This document shows positions 33,001-39,000 of a stretch of 64,000 nucleotides of DNA, in pieces; position 1 is the first letter of the stretch, and every line of letters begins with the position of its first letter. Origin of the DNA: Escherichia coli. GTDB lineage: Bacteria > Pseudomonadota > Gammaproteobacteria > Enterobacterales > Enterobacteriaceae. Position numbers: made by a program. Where the stretch lies: NCBI RefSeq assembly GCF_001677475.2, contig NZ_CP015229.1, one strand, 5' to 3'.

Positions 33001-36000
33001 TTGTTAAGGAGTAATGGGCTCTTCGGGTTTGCTTCCGGCTGACTGACTGGCGCTGATTTTCTCAGCGGCCCTTTTATCAATCTGCCTGCGCCAGAAGTCA
33101 CGCATGGCCCTGTACCCACCCGAAAGGAGATACAGCACACAGACCACCGTACAGAAGTACAGCATCAGCTGATGAATAAATGTCATAATTTCTTACCGTT
33201 ATGGTTAACTAAGTAAACAGTTTTCATTTAAAAATGCCGATGACGAAAGTGGTAGTATCTTTCCTTGATTCTCCATGAATCTCACACCGCCAGAGGTCTC
33301 AGGCAACTGGCGGCTTTTTTTATCATGCCGCGGCATCCGCGTTGTTCACTTCCACCGCAATGCTGTCAATCAGCACCGGGTAAGTCGCATTCCTGGTAAT
33401 GTCTGTCACATGCATCTTATCCGCCGCAAAGGCACTGACCGGTGACTGCGTCAGCGTGAACGGTGTACCATCCTGACCATCAATAACCGGCGTTACCTGA
33501 AGGCTGTTATTCCCGGCAAAGCGGAAAGCCAGCGTATGCCATTCATTATCAAATGCGCCAAGGGTTCCCAGTTTCTGGTTATTTGTCGCCACTTTCGCAT
33601 TGTGGTACATCACATTCAGGTCTTTTGCGTCTGTCTGGATGTAAAACGATGCCAGCAGATTATTCCCTGCATCCCCTGTCAGGGTGACACCCTGTGGCAG
33701 AGAGGAAACCGGCCAGTAAAGCGCCATGACATACTGGTTTGCCACCAGTTCACCGGATGCCTTAAAGCGGCAACTGATTAAACCTCCATTTTTCAGCAGT
33801 TCAGCGCCAGTACCGGCATCATGCTCCAGATGCCATGACCCTTTACCTGTCTCCTTGCTCAGCTTCATCGCGGTTCCACCTGTTGCACCCTCATCAGCAA
33901 CAATTTCCGCTTTACCTCCGCCAGCACTCCAGCCCTGTTCGGTCAGCTTCCCTTCAGACTCACTGGCCCGGTAAGACAGCAGTGTTGTGGTGCTTACCGC
34001 TTCACTTTCTGACGGTGACGGCGTCGGTGCGCCAGTTTCAGAAGATGGAACATCGACTTTTACTGTGGTTCTCCCGGCATGAACCAGAATCGCCGTTGCC
34101 AGACGGTCGGAAATAATCCCACGGCGTGCCCAGGAGCTGAAATGGCTCGCCCTGTCCTGTGACGTCCAGGTGGCTGAGCTGTCACGCCATTTCGAACCGT
34201 AATAACCGATACCCGGAATGTCCGGGTCTTCTTCCGGTTTGTTCGTCGGCACATTCACCCCGTTCTCATCGGTCATGAACGGTACGAAATGGATATTCTT
34301 TTCCGTTTTGTTTTTATAGCTGCCGTACACCATCTGGTAGGTGGATTCGTTCTTCTGCTTCCAGAAATACGTCGTGTCCCCACATATCCAGGGAACACCG
34401 CCAGCAGAGCCACCGACGCACTGGCCAGCCATATCCGCCAGGTCTGCACGGAATTTATCAACCAGCGCACCAAACTGTGCTGCGTGATTTGCCGGCGTAC
34501 CGCCAAAATCAAATTCCCCCTGCATCCACACCACGGCAAACAGCACATTTTTCGGGTTCTTCTTCAGTGCTGCTTTTGTTCGACCTATAAGGTCCTTATA
34601 CAGGGGCTTGTCCACCCCCCAGCGCACTGAATTCTCCGAGGCACCGGTCGCGTCACTGTATGTGCCATCAGCTCCGGTGGTGAACGCTGAACCACCACGA
34701 CAGCACGGAACCAGCAGAATACCCGCATTCGCCGGTATAAACGGCAGCAGTTTTTTGGCGATATGCAGCCCCTGCCCCACGGTTCCGTACTGCCCCTTTG
34801 ACAGGTCCGCTTTCGGATGGTTAAGACGGCTCATGTCCTGCACATCATGCAGACAATGGTCCGCCGGAATGATGTCGTTATATTTACAGGCGACACCGCC
34901 CGGTGTCACCGTACTGCGACGCGCCAGCTGCTTAATACGCGGCTCCGGACGGTCATATGTCTCCGGTAGCGGAAGACCTTCACCGTATGACATACCATTG
35001 GACTGACCGGCAAGCGCAATCACATAGTAATATTCTGGCGCAACAGAAGGATTCGTTGAGGTCGTCGGACGGTTGCCTGGCTCCTCAGGTGATGAGATGC
35101 TTCCCTCGCTCACAACTGGCTGGATGAATTCCGCACCATAACCAGCTGTCGAAATCAGCGCACTACCATAAGGCTGCCACCCTTCCTTCAGTTTTTGAGT
35201 TATTCGTTCCGCAAGATCGGACGGCGATACCGCCCTGACCACGTCATAGTGTTTAAATGCCATGAATCCTCCCGGCCGGGATAATGTACTGAATAAGATA
35301 AGGAGTGAGCGGAAGTCCCGAAACACAAGGGAAAAAGACAACCACCCGCAAAAAAGAAATACACTCCTCACAGTTGCGCAGGGTGATTACTGTAAGGTAT
35401 TATTCGCAGCGTTAATTAATTGTTCATATTGCTTTTCTTCTTGCCAACCGCTCTTCCCGGGGGCGGCTTTTTTTGCATGTAAAAGGCCCCTGCTATGAGG
35501 GGCCCTAGTATATGCCTAATCTCTGTATACTGCATGGTGCCGGGTGCCTCCCGGTGAGTTCGGCCTGGTGCCACCAAACCCGCGTATTCTCGCTTACGAT
35601 CATCAAAGAGATCATACCATTCACCAGTCGCCCCTCCGCACAGGGGGATTCACCATGCCAGTTTCTTTTAACAAACTCCCCGCAAATCAGACAACTGTCA
35701 ACTGTCTGAATTGTGAGACATTTAAAATTTTCGGGGCATGACTGATACCCGGCTAACTACCTGGCATGCCCTTTTTCACCAAAGGGAAAAGCACCACCAC
35801 AATACCAACCACCAGCACTCCATCCGCCAGCACCGACATGACCCTGCTGGTGAAATCCACCATCACCACCAGAAACAGCAGGAGTGCCACAGCAGCCAGA
35901 CGCAGTTTTAATGTCACAGGTGGTTCTCCAGTCGCAGGCCAAGAACACCGGCGATCTCTTCCAGAACCTTACGCTCTTCCGGCTCAATTTCACCATCCGC

Positions 36001-39000
36001 TTCAGCAATGGCCACCGCCACATCCAGCACATCTTCCGCTTCATGCGTATCGTGTTTTACATCTTCAATTTCACGCAACGCCGCTCGACGACCAATTTTA
36101 AAGTTGGTGTCAAGCTGACCTGTGATCGTGGCACTGATGGCATTAATTTCTGACGTAAACGCGGACAACGCAGGCTGGTTACGTAATACCTGTTCGATCT
36201 TCGCTTTCTCTGAAGCCTCACATTCACCATCTGCATAGGCCACCAGATAGGCAGCATTAATAACCGCCTGTGCCAGATCACGTTTCTCAAACTTTTTAAT
36301 TTCCGCTGCCGCTCTGCGGGTTTTCTTTTTGAAAATACCAAACATCGTGACGTTCCTTTAGGTGGGTGAGCCAACGCCCGGGAGCGATCTGCCCACAGAG
36401 AAAGTCACACTGACCACTCCGTAAGCTCACCCCCGAAAGGCTCTGTGGTTGATATGCGCCGGGCGTGGCGCGGAGACAAAAAAGGCCCGCAAAAGCGAGC
36501 CTGGTAAATAAATATGGCGCGTTGTACTAGATTCGAACCAGTGACCGATTGCTTAGAAGGCAATTGCTCTGTCCGGCTGAGCTAACAACGCAGTGTACAG
36601 ATAATGGACCGCCATCGAGGACTCGAACCCCGCGCAACCAGCTTCGAAGGCTGGCGCTCTATCCCGATGAGCTAATGGCGGTAGGTGATGGTGGCCCTTG
36701 CTGGATTTGAACCAGCGACCTGGCGATTATGAGTCGCTCGCTCTCACCACTGAGCTAAAGGGCCGGGCGCAGGATAATAACGGCACGTAACTAATTCTGC
36801 AATATCATCCGTTCTGACTGACTAAATTCTGAACTTCCCTGACCGTCTGCTCAAAACGCCCGCTCTCCAGCTCAACGCCAATTGCACGACGCCCCAGCGA
36901 CATTGCTGCTTTGACGCTACGGACATAAAAAAGCCAGCCACTGGGGGAGGCTGGCAAACTCGTAGAGCAAAATGCTGTTACGCAAACTTCGTTACAGGGT
37001 TATCCTGCAATACTTAAAATATACAATATTTAGAAAACTAATAGCACCATATGCGATTTTTAAGATTTTATTATTAATTGCGGTCGCACCTTCCTTTCTG
37101 TGTACTTTCCGTATAACTAACAGGATTCCGGATACAAAAAACCCGCGCATCGGCGGGTTAAGCAGCGTGGCAATGTAACCACTCTTATCATGATATGCAG
37201 ATTTTTACGTACGTAAAATACTTTTTAGCATCCCGTTCAATCGGGAGCGGAATCAGGGATTCCGCGACGCTTCACACCACCTCTGGTGGGGATTTTCGAG
37301 CTCTTTTTTTACCACATAGCAATGTATTCAGTCGGCGTTGTTTGGGGCTTCTGCATAAACGACACCAGCTTTGCGGCCTTTTCTTATTCCAACAAATTCT
37401 GAATTCTAATTTTTTCTCAATTTCCTCATCAGAGACAGCTATTTTGCCGCAGAGAGGGCAAGTGTGCTTTTTATCATACTCGGTTTTCAGCACCTCAATT
37501 AACTTACGAATTAATGGCTTGATGTCATAAACGTTCCGCAAATCATAATCATGACCGATTTGAGCATAACTTATCTTCTGCAACATCCCTTTTCCTCCAG
37601 GCGTTGAAAGCCTTCTTCTATAATGGCACGAGATGCACGCATTCTGGTGGCAAAAAGAGATATTGACGGTAATGTTTGTGAATCTACATCTTGATGAAAT
37701 GAAACAAAATTAGCCAGCAGAGCTAATTCTGAATGGTTTATTTTTAACCTGTGCTGGTATTTCAAAAGCTCTCTGAGAATAACGAACCAGTCAATGTTTA
37801 AAATATCATCACTCCACAGAGACAAATCGTTTTTCTCTGCTTCCGGGAAATCCTCGATGTCCATTTTACCCCTGTTCATTGTTGTATCTCTGCGGTTAAA
37901 CGGTAGATAACTCTTACGTCCTTGTCCTATAAAGTAAATAGCATAACGTTCACAAATTTACATACTTCACATAGTGAACGACAAGCGCCTGCTATCACAG
38001 GCGCTGCACATATCGGTCCATTTTCAGTCTGACACCAAGTAACATTAACATCCCTTCAACCACGCCCTCCGCTTTCTGTAATTTTTTACCAATAGTTCCA
38101 TCAGAGCATCCATGCTTACGTGCCAGCGCCATGAACGTCTCCCCCAACACGTAATAATCAACCAGCAAGTCATGCAGATCACTGTTGTTCCTGTTAAGGC
38201 GAGCCATACACCCGCATATAATCATCGCGTCATCGTCACAACACTGTGGACGTGATTTTACTTTTTCGGGGATCAGTCCCTTAAATCCGGCAGCAATGGG
38301 CGACCATGTAACATCCTCATGGTTATTTGCCGCCCATGCCCCCCAGCGCTCAAGAACCTGCCGGATATCACGCATCAGTATCTTTACCCCATCCGCGATG
38401 AACCATAAGGACTCCATTGACGACGGCGTGCTTTTTCGCATCTTTATCATCAATGTATTTTCTGACTGTGGCACGATTGCAGTTCAGTATTCTGGCGACT
38501 TCTGTCTGATTTCCCCTGGTGCAGATCAGTAATTCAGGTATCGTTTGAATTTTAGCATTCATCAAATGTTCTCCAGTTCGGTGATTTTTATCCCCACTCT
38601 ACCGCCAGGCACTTTCACGCCGCGAATTACGCGAATGTCATCGAATTGCTCGTCGTCTTCCGCAAATCCGGCGTGGATAAGAGAGTCGAGTAAACCTTTT
38701 AGGATGTTATCGAGGTCGCGACGGCGGGAATCTGGTGGTTCAGCAATAATTGTGATGCTAAGTCGTGATTTAGTGAAAATGTCTAATCTGAGTTGCCGGA
38801 TGATTTGCTGTACGTCTTTTCGGTATTTCTGGCCTTTATCGCTGATGTAGTACTGGCTTCCCCGTCTTCGCCAGTAGGTATTCACCGTCGGCGGCCAGGG
38901 AAGCACAAACTCATATTCATTCATGACTTAATTTTCCCCTCCTTCAGTAGTATCGCCTGCGTCCTGATCACGCCTTCCAGGTGGTAAAGTCTGGCGTCTT

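Follow-up and report, generated by a model that had tools for sequence, protein, structure and literature searches.

A tciA/tciB-type gene pair with a predicted structured leader RNA at the stx cargo site of an Escherichia coli late operon

Results

Organization of the locus

The window analysed here is a stretch of 64,000 nucleotides from Escherichia coli contig NZ_CP015229.1. The whole locus described below lies on its minus strand, in the order Q, three tRNA genes, terminator, tciA, tciB, an STnc100/PasD-type sRNA and nanS-p (Table 1). An earlier note on this DNA had left out this placement, as well as the sRNA and the structured leader in front of tciA.

Table 1. Features of the tciAB locus and of the second leader copy in the window
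Feature	Position	Strand	Basis and remarks
Q-type late antiterminator gene	37995-38474	-	PHROG 79 'anti-termination protein Q-like', 1.2e-52; start of the late operon
tRNA-Met/Ile2(CAT), tRNA-Arg(TCG), tRNA-Arg(TCT)	36515-36764	-	ARAGORN; Rfam tRNA
Intrinsic-terminator-like hairpin and T run, 3' of the tRNAs	36483-36502	-	consensus scan; 8-bp stem, 6 GC pairs
tciA leader, predicted structured	36346-36472	-	covariation; covariance model R1
tciA, TerB-domain gene, 143 aa	35914-36345	-	Pfam TerB; PHROG 632
tciB, DUF3927 gene, 54 aa	35753-35917	-	PHROG 1470
STnc100/PasD-family prophage sRNA with its own terminator	35475-35687	-	Rfam RF02076, 181.9 bits, full length
NanS-p-like sialate esterase gene, downstream flank of the slot	33323-35263	-	PHROG 143, score 1147
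Second leader copy, upstream of the Ant gene, lysis cassette	31597-31737	-	R1, 51.3 bits, E 9e-10
Ant anti-repressor gene	31033-31605	-	PHROG 524, 3.5e-101

The three-tRNA block was found to be homologous to the block 5' of stx2c in phage 1717. Homology to this Stx2c phage spans the tRNAs down to window position 36467, corresponding to 44 nt before stx2cA, and restarts at position 35720, corresponding to 42 nt after stx2cB. The tciAB cassette stands in place of stxAB between the same flanks. The earlier note had placed the pair between Q with the tRNAs and nanS-p, at the site of stxAB, and had reported the absence of stx genes; the flanks bear out the former, and in the ORF listing of the window no stx ORF was found in the cargo slot. 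The site is the late-operon cargo site described by Tree et al. (2014, PMC4104026). As in the stxAB cassettes of phage 1717 and 933W, a tRNA block and terminator lie upstream, an STnc100-like element and nanS-p lie downstream, and expression is presumably pR'/Q-dependent. The genes themselves are unrelated to stxAB, and the stx cassette lacks the leader motif (no match to R1).

The STnc100-type sRNA is a neighbour of the protein pair and lies outside it. It begins 66 nt 3' of tciB, and a matching element is found 3' of stxB in Stx phages. Its place upstream of the sialate esterase is that described for PasD2 by Zhu, Shabalina and Storz (preprint, 2026), and like the known STnc100/PasD sRNAs it matches the family over the full length. 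In contrast to the convergent 'anti-sRNA' site reported 3' of moron genes (Tree et al., 2014), no AsxR/AgvB homologue was detected by an Rfam search of 35264-36520. The esterase of the closest relative is annotated 'SASA family carbohydrate esterase'; in the window the gene probably starts at 35263, because the PHROG 143 match begins only at residue 37 of the listed ORF.

The TciA and TciB proteins

The tciA gene starts with ATG and has the Shine-Dalgarno sequence AAGGA 8 nt upstream. That its product is TerB-like, as the earlier note had claimed, was confirmed by matches to PF05099 (TerB; 1.1e-12, residues 26-138, with a second partial match at 1.2e-4 arising from an internal repeat), to PHROG 632 (3e-69) and, among PDB sequences, to KP-TerB (2JXU, 1e-12). 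The AF2 model is all-helical with seven helices (pLDDT 89.9), and its top PDB fold matches are the TerB-like structures 2H5N (TM 0.52-0.61, prob 1.0) and 2OU3, with weak E-values of 1e-2 to 1. The sequence has a basic N-terminal helix and an ADGxxxxxE motif in each of two half-repeats; among 54 homologues, D39, G40 and E46 and the corresponding D117, G118 and E124 are either invariant or conserved to at least 90%. Judged by sequence and model, TciA is a cytoplasmic protein of the TerB fold that carries the ADGxxxxxE motif as two acidic repeats.

The GTG start of tciB overlaps the TGA stop of tciA as GTGA, with GGAG 8 nt upstream, so the coupling of a small hydrophobic ORF proposed in the earlier note stands. 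Kyte-Doolittle analysis gave two hydrophobic segments (about residues 5-20 and 26-47), and K/R residues flank both ends. TciB is predicted to be a two-segment inner-membrane hairpin whose translation is coupled to that of TciA. The ORF is named DUF3927 family protein in RefSeq and matches PHROG 1470 (6e-24); a DUF3927 profile search returned 810 clusters, and those 93-100% identical to the TciB of the window carry a precomputed PF13064 assignment. The earlier note had made its reading depend on a TerB match and on a small ORF uninterrupted in close relatives: the TerB match is present, and tciB is intact with the GTGA overlap in about 75 of 80 close IMG/VR relatives, including some with in-frame insertions of 3 codons.

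The ORF of 54 codons is short and begins with GTG, and a tblastn search of the phage collection with the TciB peptide gave no match, owing to low-complexity filtering, so that it might be taken for a chance ORF beside a real TerB gene. This reading is next to impossible and was rejected, given the PHROG 1470 match and the DUF3927 clusters, the conservation and coupling of the ORF in more than 10 phage lineages, the in-frame indels and a dN/dS of about 0.22 (about 0.07 for tciA).

When TciA and TciB were modelled as a fusion in AF2, no confident interface emerged (pLDDT 72.8), and TciB took the form of one long low-confidence helix. TciA clades as divergent as 42% identity have near-identical TciB, and therefore a highly specific interface between the two proteins is not evident. 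The TciB of jumbo phages lacks the conserved acidic residues.

Identity and distribution of the pair

By sequence, the TerB-like gene and the small ORF are homologues of tciA/tciB of phage P1 (PHROG 632 with 1470; Pfam TerB with DUF3927). The pair, to which the earlier note could assign no function, is thus not novel but long annotated and uncharacterized, and the predicted leader RNA is the only new element at the locus. The P1 record names tciA/tciB, phage JLK-2012 is annotated with TciA/TciB, and in RefSeq 806 of 5,426 complete E. coli genomes have a 'tellurite resistance TerB family protein' with a 'DUF3927 family protein' (median 4 copies). In the literature searched no published experiment assigns TciA or TciB a phenotype, and the name in P1 was given 'by homology' only.

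TciA is 42% identical to its P1 and 52% identical to its P7 counterpart over the full length, and TciB is 41% identical and shares the motif VDFTS..SVLSDG..WP..K. The start/stop codon overlap and the adjacent tRNA genes are also common to these loci. Unlike the P1 module, the locus has the sRNA instead of a tciC-like third ORF; since tciC is also missing from most non-P1 examples, it does not define the wider module. The P1 pair belongs to the C1-repressed ban operon, whereas here the pair lies in a Q-dependent late operon, and the leaders of P1 and P7 lack the motif (no match to R1).

A DUF3927-type ORF begins between -8 and +5 nt from the TerB stop in 156 of 173 TerB-bearing loci. Coupled ORFs of this kind occur in P1, P7, CharmingMan, Klebsiella phage 5 LV-2017 and jumbo phages of Salmonella and Erwinia, as well as in the N4-like phages Pollock and FSL SP-076, Pantoea phage LIET2 and Pseudomonas phage ZY21. 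In the Pseudomonas phages AF and Zuri a different, single-pass membrane ORF is coupled 3' of TerB, and therefore the constant feature is TerB plus a small membrane partner. The TerB genes of PMBT3 and Vibrio phage K479 have no coupled small ORF.

With TerB of the terZABCDE(F) operon (IncHI2 R478, O157 islands; structure 2JXU) TciA shares the Pfam domain, the fold class, a length of about 150 aa and the two acidic repeats. However, terC, terD, terZ and terA are not nearby, the only neighbours being tRNAs, tciB, the sRNA and nanS-p, and the partner is a 54-aa peptide instead of the multi-pass TerC, the membrane protein with which TerB has been reported to work (PMC12054061). The minimal determinants of tellurite, phage and colicin phenotypes in ter operons require terC, terD and terZ, TerB alone being insufficient (PMC12054061), and therefore the functional analogy of TciA to the ter operon is weak.

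The predicted leader RNA

The structure of the leader was derived from alignments A5 and A6 with RNAalifold. It covers about 125 nt and contains a P0 hairpin with a GCGCC/GGCGC stem, whose loop CGCCC pairs with a GGGCG bulge about 100-105 nt downstream to form a pseudoknot, a second long-range helix Pa (CCACAGAG/CUCUGUGG) and further stems Pb and Pc. In addition, a CCUUU sequence can pair with the AAAGG of the Shine-Dalgarno region. Counted on the same sequences that were used to derive the structure, 93% of cells were paired compared with 33-49% in slid controls, and there were 41 double-change cells, a number reached by 0 of 500 shuffles. Compensatory changes were found in 4 of the 5 pairs of P0, and several compensatory variants in the pseudoknot and Pa (47 copies). 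Covariance model R1, built on type-1 copies only, scored the tciA leader of the window at 156 bits and, without picking up any of the chance pattern hits, recovered about 40 copies from Enterobacterales. Searches of Rfam 15 gave nothing but STnc100 at E<=0.1 in 35264-36520 and no match at E<=1 in 31500-31850, where the second copy lies. The strong covariation argues that the tciA leader is a conserved, pseudoknotted structured RNA without a prior Rfam family.

In 3 of 4 independent representatives the MFE fold contains the stem that buries the Shine-Dalgarno sequence and exposes the pseudoknot partner as a 6-nt bulge; in that of the window's own tciA leader the Shine-Dalgarno sequence remains free. 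Each anti-SD/SD pair is either invariant or changed on one side only and has no covariation support. The second copy in the window forms the equivalent pseudoknot (UCUCAC/GUGAGA) and Pa (CACAGAA/UUCUGUG), buries the Shine-Dalgarno sequence in its MFE fold and is 100% identical in 933W-type Stx phages. Further copies precede glycosyltransferase, HNH and unknown genes in enterobacterial phages. Every copy lies 3' of a terminator hairpin, and its 3' end is the Shine-Dalgarno sequence of the gene that follows.

This arrangement could also be explained by a DNA-level element, either a site for recombination or cassette insertion, comparable to the attC sites of integrons, which are conserved in structure and not in sequence, or a protein operator, that mobilizes accessory genes. 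The leader does coincide exactly with the 5' edge of the cassette in the comparison with Stx phage 1717 (36467-36470), always follows a terminator directly and precedes many unrelated accessory genes. But many of its pairs are G-U when read on the sense strand and would become A-C on the opposite one; this tolerance of G-U implies that the sense-strand RNA folds. Moreover, the element has a single orientation relative to the downstream gene, whose Shine-Dalgarno sequence it contains at its end, and long-range loop-bulge pairing with an SD stem is typical of tertiary folds of RNA. We regard a DNA element as distinctly improbable.

As a putative RNA, the leader resembles SD-sequestering leaders (riboswitches, RNA thermometers, protein-binding leaders) in lying directly 5' of a start codon with a predicted SD stem, and in combining conserved unpaired nucleotides with covarying helices and pseudoknots; unlike them it matches no Rfam family. 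The genes downstream of the copies (TerB, Ant, glycosyltransferase, HNH) are functionally unrelated, which argues against a metabolite-specific riboswitch.

Discussion

The earlier note had called the slot a moron site, and as a description of the site this holds. It implies that tciAB is switched on in the lysogen and confers resistance to tellurite, pore-forming colicins or heterologous phages in the manner of ter genes, which would agree with the classical position (PMC4104026), the TerB homology, the presence of up to 8 copies of tciAB in EHEC genomes and the listing of prophage TerB as a presumed phage-defence factor in surveys of Klebsiella prophages (PMC7371120). However, a consensus scan detected no promoter-like site between the upstream terminator and tciA, the terminator lies directly before the leader, and the other ter genes that determine these phenotypes are not adjacent. 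In PADLOC-DB 2.0, TciA matched only PDC-S48, a candidate family, over 35 residues at E=0.002, and TciB matched nothing. Obligately lytic phages of the N4-like and jumbo types also carry the pair, in their case among early or middle genes, and in P1 it belongs to the C1-controlled ban operon. Its distribution over temperate, plasmid-prophage, N4-like and jumbo phages points to a role in lytic growth rather than in lysogenic conversion. A benefit to the lysogen is weakened accordingly and seems to us unlikely, though it retains some weight.

Alternatively, TciB could itself damage membranes as a holin-, antiholin- or toxin-like protein that TciA restrains or times, with a function in lysis timing, abortive infection or as a toxin-antitoxin system. 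TciB is tiny, with two hydrophobic segments and conserved intramembrane Asp and Gly (VDFTSR..SVLADG), the pair lies between Q and the holin in lambdoid phages, two-component toxic/antidote pairs are typically coupled tightly in translation, and a translation-restraining leader would suit a potentially toxic product. Gene order is uninformative here, since it is reversed relative to most antitoxin-toxin pairs only in some schemes. Against such an effector, the P1, N4-like and jumbo copies are not beside lysis genes, searches of PHROGs, NCBIfam and PADLOC revealed no similarity to holins or known toxin families, and CFT073-type prophages retain truncated remnants of tciB in the absence of tciA and show no sign of addiction. 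We consider this explanation improbable.

Our preferred proposal is that tciAB is a membrane-protecting pair of the lytic phase, carried in the late slot behind a translation-gating leader; taken as a whole, we judge it evenly balanced between right and wrong, and the mechanisms of the pair and of the leader are those we infer. TciB would anchor TciA to the cytoplasmic side of the inner membrane, where the two would form a complex; by the positive-inside rule, both termini of TciB would be cytoplasmic. The complex would keep the inner membrane of the infected cell intact and energized until programmed lysis, possibly by blocking the DNA entry of superinfecting phages, pore-forming colicins or premature depolarization, by analogy with the ter operon and its phenotypes of phage inhibition and colicin resistance. 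TciA peptides have been found in P1 lysate preparations (PMC9024508), and the P1 tci genes were non-essential by CRISPRi (PMC10695390), which fits the accessory protective function expected.

In this proposal the pair would be produced in the lytic cycle. At this locus its transcripts would start at pR', with Q-modified RNA polymerase passing the terminators. The leader would act in cis as a compact pseudoknotted RNA in which the Shine-Dalgarno sequence is base-paired, so that translation of the cargo genes that carry it may be gated and would not simply track the very strong late transcription.

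The tciAB cassette in the Shiga-toxin slot

The earlier note had placed a 143-aa TerB-like gene, coupled to a small hydrophobic ORF, at the position where Shiga-toxin phages carry stxAB, and its coordinates and description of the locus were found to be correct. The two ORFs overlap in the sequence GTGA, made up of the GTG start of the 54-aa ORF and the TGA stop of the 143-aa ORF. When the window was compared with the Stx2c phage 1717, similarity stopped at 36467, which in that phage lies 44 nt before stx2cA, and restarted at 35720, which lies 42 nt after stx2cB. A 746-nt tciAB cassette therefore stands between the same flanks in place of a 1,325-nt stx cassette.

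Features of the locus and of related elements in the window
Feature	Coordinates	Strand	Basis
Region with sRNA-Xcc1, C4 antisense RNA and isrK	42028-42117, 42959-43042, 43068-43141	-	Rfam, gathering level
Q-type antiterminator	37995-38474	-	PHROG 79
Split gene, function not assigned	37272-37879	-	PHROG matches of two halves
50-aa ORF	36805-36957	-	
tRNA-Met/Ile2(CAT), Arg(TCG), Arg(TCT)	36515-36764	-	tRNA prediction
Terminator-like hairpin	36502-36483	-	consensus scan
Leader, 125 nt	36346-36472	-	comparative analysis
143-aa ORF (tciA)	35914-36345	-	ORF call
54-aa ORF (tciB)	35753-35917	-	ORF call
STnc100, full-length match	35475-35687	-	Rfam, 182 bits
Convergent terminator-like hairpin	35448-35466	+	
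NanS-p-like esterase	real start about 35263	-	PHROG match
Holin and lysozyme	further 3' of esterase	-	
Second leader copy	31597-31737	-	covariance model R1, E 9e-10
Ant anti-repressor gene	31033-31605	-	

The split gene consists of two neighbouring ORFs, 102 and 104 aa long, which lie between Q and the tRNAs and match positions 1-94 and 94-197 of PHROG 34160; since these are the two halves of one family, a frameshifted gene is indicated. The 50-aa ORF just 5' of the tRNAs resembles the C-terminal remnant of a DNA methyltransferase, and a DNA methyltransferase occupies the corresponding place in the closest relative, NZ_CP046539. In the E. coli CFT073 prophage, where tciA is deleted, all that is left in the same slot 3' of the tRNAs is a DUF3927 remnant truncated at its N terminus (L008:3977-4108), and iraM follows; this variant of the slot is common among ExPEC genomes, and the reading of such prophages as carrying DUF3927 with another partner was ruled out, the supposed gene being the truncated tciB. 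Elsewhere in the prophage of the window, the region with the sRNA-Xcc1, C4 antisense RNA and isrK matches looks like a P1/P7-type antirepressor immunity region.

The STnc100 (PasD-related) sRNA lies directly 3' of tciB, and in Stx phages a homologous element sits after stxB. The plus-strand hairpin beyond it is like the one in what Tree et al. 2014 described as a 'convergent sRNA' arrangement. Neither AsxR nor AgvB was matched. The segments 5' of tciA in phages P1 (L003:2420-2500) and P7 (L004) contain CACCGGGAAGCACCCGGCACC, nearly the same as a conserved STnc100 hairpin, CACCGGGAGGCACCCGGCACC.

Identity and distribution of the pair

The 143-aa protein matched Pfam TerB (1.1e-12), the solved structure of KP-TerB, 2JXU (1e-12), and, end to end, PHROG 632 'tellurite resistance' (3e-69). 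Its AlphaFold model, obtained with 54 homologues as input, was confident (pLDDT 89.9) and all-helical, the closest PDB folds being the TerB-like proteins 2H5N and 2OU3. Both ADGxxxxxE repeats are conserved, as is a basic helix at the N terminus (K7, K8, K17, K18). PADLOC found no known defence system, and apart from weak repeat matches such as DjlA neither it nor NCBIfam returned any system or family.

For the 54-codon ORF, a spurious reading frame was the alternative to a gene. Its product matched PHROG 1470 'TciB-like' (6e-24) and belongs to DUF3927/PF13064, a family of 810 clusters; among the top 120, all those with an organism name are from Enterobacterales. In about 75 of 80 close relatives the ORF is uninterrupted and overlaps tciA in the same way, three of them having an in-frame VMV insertion, and its dN/dS is about 0.22 as compared with about 0.07 for tciA. 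By ORF inspection and profile search, DUF3927-type ORFs starting -8 to +5 nt from the TerB stop were found in P1, P7, lambdoid phages of Escherichia and Klebsiella, Salmonella and Erwinia jumbo phages, the N4-like phages Pollock and FSL SP-076, Pantoea phage LIET2 and Pseudomonas phage ZY21, in which the ORF is unannotated. They share VDF(T/S)S(R/K)..S.LADG, which lies between the two hydrophobic segments, and a terminal WP..K. On these sequence comparisons tciB is a real gene. The ORF coupled to TerB in the Pseudomonas phages AF and Zuri is a different one, with a single membrane segment at its N terminus and a C..YG.QTERET.YA.FVGCMV domain; in PMBT3 and Vibrio K479 TerB has no partner ORF. 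What stays constant is the pairing of TerB with a small, co-translated protein of the membrane.

Some further observations concern the small proteins and their annotation. In AF (L006:2432-2653) and Zuri (L171:1943-2146) the conserved domain extends further, as ..W.PR.E.R, and in Zuri both genes are mis-annotated, the TerB gene as a dCTP deaminase and the small ORF as a tellurite resistance protein. Unannotated or mis-started tciB homologues lie directly 3' of the TerB gene in ZY21 (L174:986-1174), where only a 39-aa fragment starting 72 nt downstream is annotated, and in Klebsiella phage 5 LV-2017 (L172:2923-3078). Two TerB-DUF3927 fusion proteins in the databases, P0126 (197 aa) and P0201 (196 aa), were rejected as evidence of association, their junctions indicating single frameshifts (sequencing errors or mutations).

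The pair is homologous to tciA/tciB of P1 and terB/upf69.4 of P7, and phage JLK-2012 has TciA/TciB annotated at the same Q-tRNA-...-yjhS position; the identity of the pair as tciA/tciB is practically certain. RefSeq annotates it at 2,726 places in 806 of 5,426 complete E. coli genomes (15%), mostly of EHEC serotypes; carrier genomes hold 4 copies at the median and 8 at most. Copies 99-100% identical to that of the window were found in one IMG/VR contig, one draft-assembly contig from a genome scan and one RefSeq genome. The pair serves chiefly as a reminder: it ranks among the most frequent cargo of EHEC prophages, occupies the Shiga-toxin slot and is often present in 4-8 copies per genome. 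The TerB domain, the coupled membrane ORF and the stx slot of the earlier interpretation all stood, but the pair, to which no function had been assigned there, is a known, widely annotated phage module. Because it is annotated in P1, JLK-2012 and RefSeq genomes, the finding as an object was already known, and since the module is functionally uncharacterised as well as widely annotated, the finding as first written is ordinary. What is added here is evidence for tciAB as a pan-phage module of two genes that probably serves lytic growth, and a structured leader RNA, well supported and apparently uncurated, which other phage accessory genes also have.

The module is itself mosaic. Near-identical TciB proteins are paired with TciA of two clades only 42% identical (L132 and L134 as against L007 and L172), and the leader and the first ~70 nt of tciA are common to both clades at about 80% DNA identity, so that recombination points must lie inside it. 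In five unrelated phage groups, namely the window, JLK-2012, P1/P7, jumbo phages (L005, L176-L179) and ZY21, tciAB adjoins tRNA genes; these differ in identity, no block homology was found across the five groups, and the association may reflect only shared cargo regions. Movement of a 'tRNA + tciAB' block between P1 and lambdoid phages was unsupported, only generic tRNA similarity of 73-78% being seen.

Proposed role of TciA and TciB

The P1 names were given by homology, and tciA, tciB and tciC of P1 are non-essential by CRISPRi (PMC10695390). TciA peptides were detected in P1 preparations (PMC9024508). Among the P1 subgroup 1 phage-plasmids examined, about half are without the operon (PMC9603915), and according to the genome note on Pollock it is not known what the pair does in a lytic phage (PMC4319500).

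The pair could be a moron of benefit to the lysogen, or it could serve lytic growth. Expression in lytic growth is favoured over lysogenic conversion because the module is present in obligately lytic phages, because P1 tciAB sits in a C1-repressed early operon, and because in the window a terminator lies 5' of the leader and no promoter was found by consensus scan within the leader or intergenic region. It is fairly probable that the pair acts in the lytic phase. The presence in lytic phages also suggests that the usual 'tellurite resistance' label is misleading.

A TerB domain anchored by TciB is suggested by the acidic-repeat protein being cytoplasmic, by the coupled two-segment peptide with basic ends, and by the single-pass partner in Pseudomonas phages. 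TciB would hold the TerB domain of TciA at the inner face of the membrane, and a membrane-associated two-protein unit seems rather likely. An AF2 run of a TciA-TciB fusion, made to look for an interface, was uninformative. Phage inhibition and the colicin phenotypes of the ter operon have been mapped to terC, terD and terZ, and TerB has been proposed to act with membrane TerC (PMC12054061). By analogy with these phenotypes, the inner membrane of the infected cell might be protected until programmed lysis, possibly against superinfecting phage entry, pore-forming colicins or depolarisation. Such a protective or exclusion role is doubtful. A further rival reading is a membrane effector or a lysis-timing or toxin-like pair.

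A structured RNA leader shared by accessory genes

Across tciA clades whose proteins are only 42% identical, the DNA of the 125 nt separating the terminator from the tciA start codon is conserved, and it is recognisable even in jumbo phages; the motif is absent from the tciA leaders of P1 and P7. The proposed helices are listed below.

Helices of the leader
Helix	Window copy	Variation
P0 hairpin	GCGCC/GGCGC	compensatory in jumbo phages: CACAUC/GAUGUG, CCUGUC/GACAGG
PK, P0 loop with segment just 5' of GGCUCAC, ~100 nt downstream	CGCCC/GGGCG	compensatory: CGCUC/GAGCG, GGCUC/GAGCC
Pa	CCACAGAG/CUCUGUGG	compensatory: CCGUAGAG/CUCUACGG, CCGCAGA/UCUGCGG
Pc stem	GGAGUGGUC/GAUCGCUCC	covaries within lambdoid group
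Pb	GGGUGAGC/GCUCACCC	nearly invariant
Possible anti-SD pairing	CCUUU/AAAGG	nearly invariant

In an alignment of 22 leaders, 93% of the cells were paired, as against 33-49% with slid partners; 41 cells had changed on both sides, a number equalled in 0 of 500 shuffles, and 11 pairs had double changes (equalled in 3 of 500). Since their columns are nearly invariant in type-1 copies, those 5' of TerB genes, Pb and the anti-SD helix are not provable in this way, and quantification across types was limited to P0, PK and Pa because MAFFT and covariance-model alignments of the variable middle (Pc) are structurally inconsistent between types. The covariance model (R1) was built from type-1 copies and nested helices only; PK and Pa were left out of it, which made an independent test of both possible across 47 copies. 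PK occurred in 29 distinct loop/partner combinations, among them UCGCAC/GUGCGA, UCUCAC/GUGAGA, UCACAC/GUGUGA, UCGCAU/AUGCGA, UCGUAC/GUACGA and CCACC/GGUGG. The PK loop matched its own partner over a mean of 6.1 nt (at least 5 nt in 93%) and the partners of other variants over 4.4 nt (at least 5 nt in 38%); for Pa the corresponding means were 6.7 and 5.1 nt.

The minimum-energy nested fold of three of four independent representatives is a long hairpin closed by CCUUU/AAAGG, predicted to bury the Shine-Dalgarno sequence and to expose the PK partner as a 6-nt bulge. For the tciA leader of the window, the predicted fold prefers an alternative outer helix, GAGCC/GGCUC. As the representatives and the window copy fold differently, GGCUCAC has at least two conserved alternative partners, and these predicted alternatives could constitute a switch.

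A pattern scan of one genome per species gave 39 matches, 30 of them in Enterobacterales (including one MAG labelled only Proteobacteria), and only about 10 lay 5' of a TerB gene. Type-2 copies precede a glycosyltransferase (PHROG 1579), an HNH endonuclease (PHROG 144) and several phage proteins without assigned function. The covariance model regained the known copies, found further ones, and matched 0 of 9 non-enterobacterial chance pattern matches. The second copy in the window stands 5' of the Ant gene in the lysis cassette, and it is present, 100% identical and unannotated, in 933W/EDL933-Stx, Stx2 II, BP-4795 and some 100 further records of Stx phages. In Salmonella phages and HK639, more divergent copies stand 5' of KilA-N and Rha genes. 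Immediately 5' of the solitary TerB gene of Pseudomonas phage PMBT3 (L170:1422-1509) there is a weak match (23.9 bits, E 0.0036), which covers no more than both ends of the model and may have arisen by chance.

The leader is a well-supported structured RNA, apparently uncurated and common to other phage accessory genes, and it is very probably a functional RNA. A rival reading is a cassette recombination site acting at the DNA level; the G-U pairs on the sense strand and the fixed orientation, with the leader ending in a Shine-Dalgarno sequence, speak against such a role. As a functional RNA, the leader might gate the translation of accessory genes that lie within strongly transcribed operons, or it might instead process or stabilise their mRNA; control of translation has about an even chance. 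Rfam 15 contained no match to the leader and no earlier description was found in the literature searched, which does not exclude that one exists; that it is undescribed so far is somewhat likely. Our full reading is tentative: a class of pseudoknotted RNA, so far undescribed and acting in cis in enterobacterial phages, which would move with accessory-gene cassettes and, in response to a trigger, gate translation or process or stabilise mRNA in strongly transcribed late operons. Candidate triggers would be a protein of the phage or its host, an ion, temperature or self-cleavage.

The leader matters more than the gene pair. If it is a true regulatory RNA, it would be a common control element of the accessory genes of enterobacterial phages, including Ant in the lysis cassette of 933W-type Stx phages, and would offer a route to study how over-expression of cargo genes in late operons is restrained and how cassettes move between phages.
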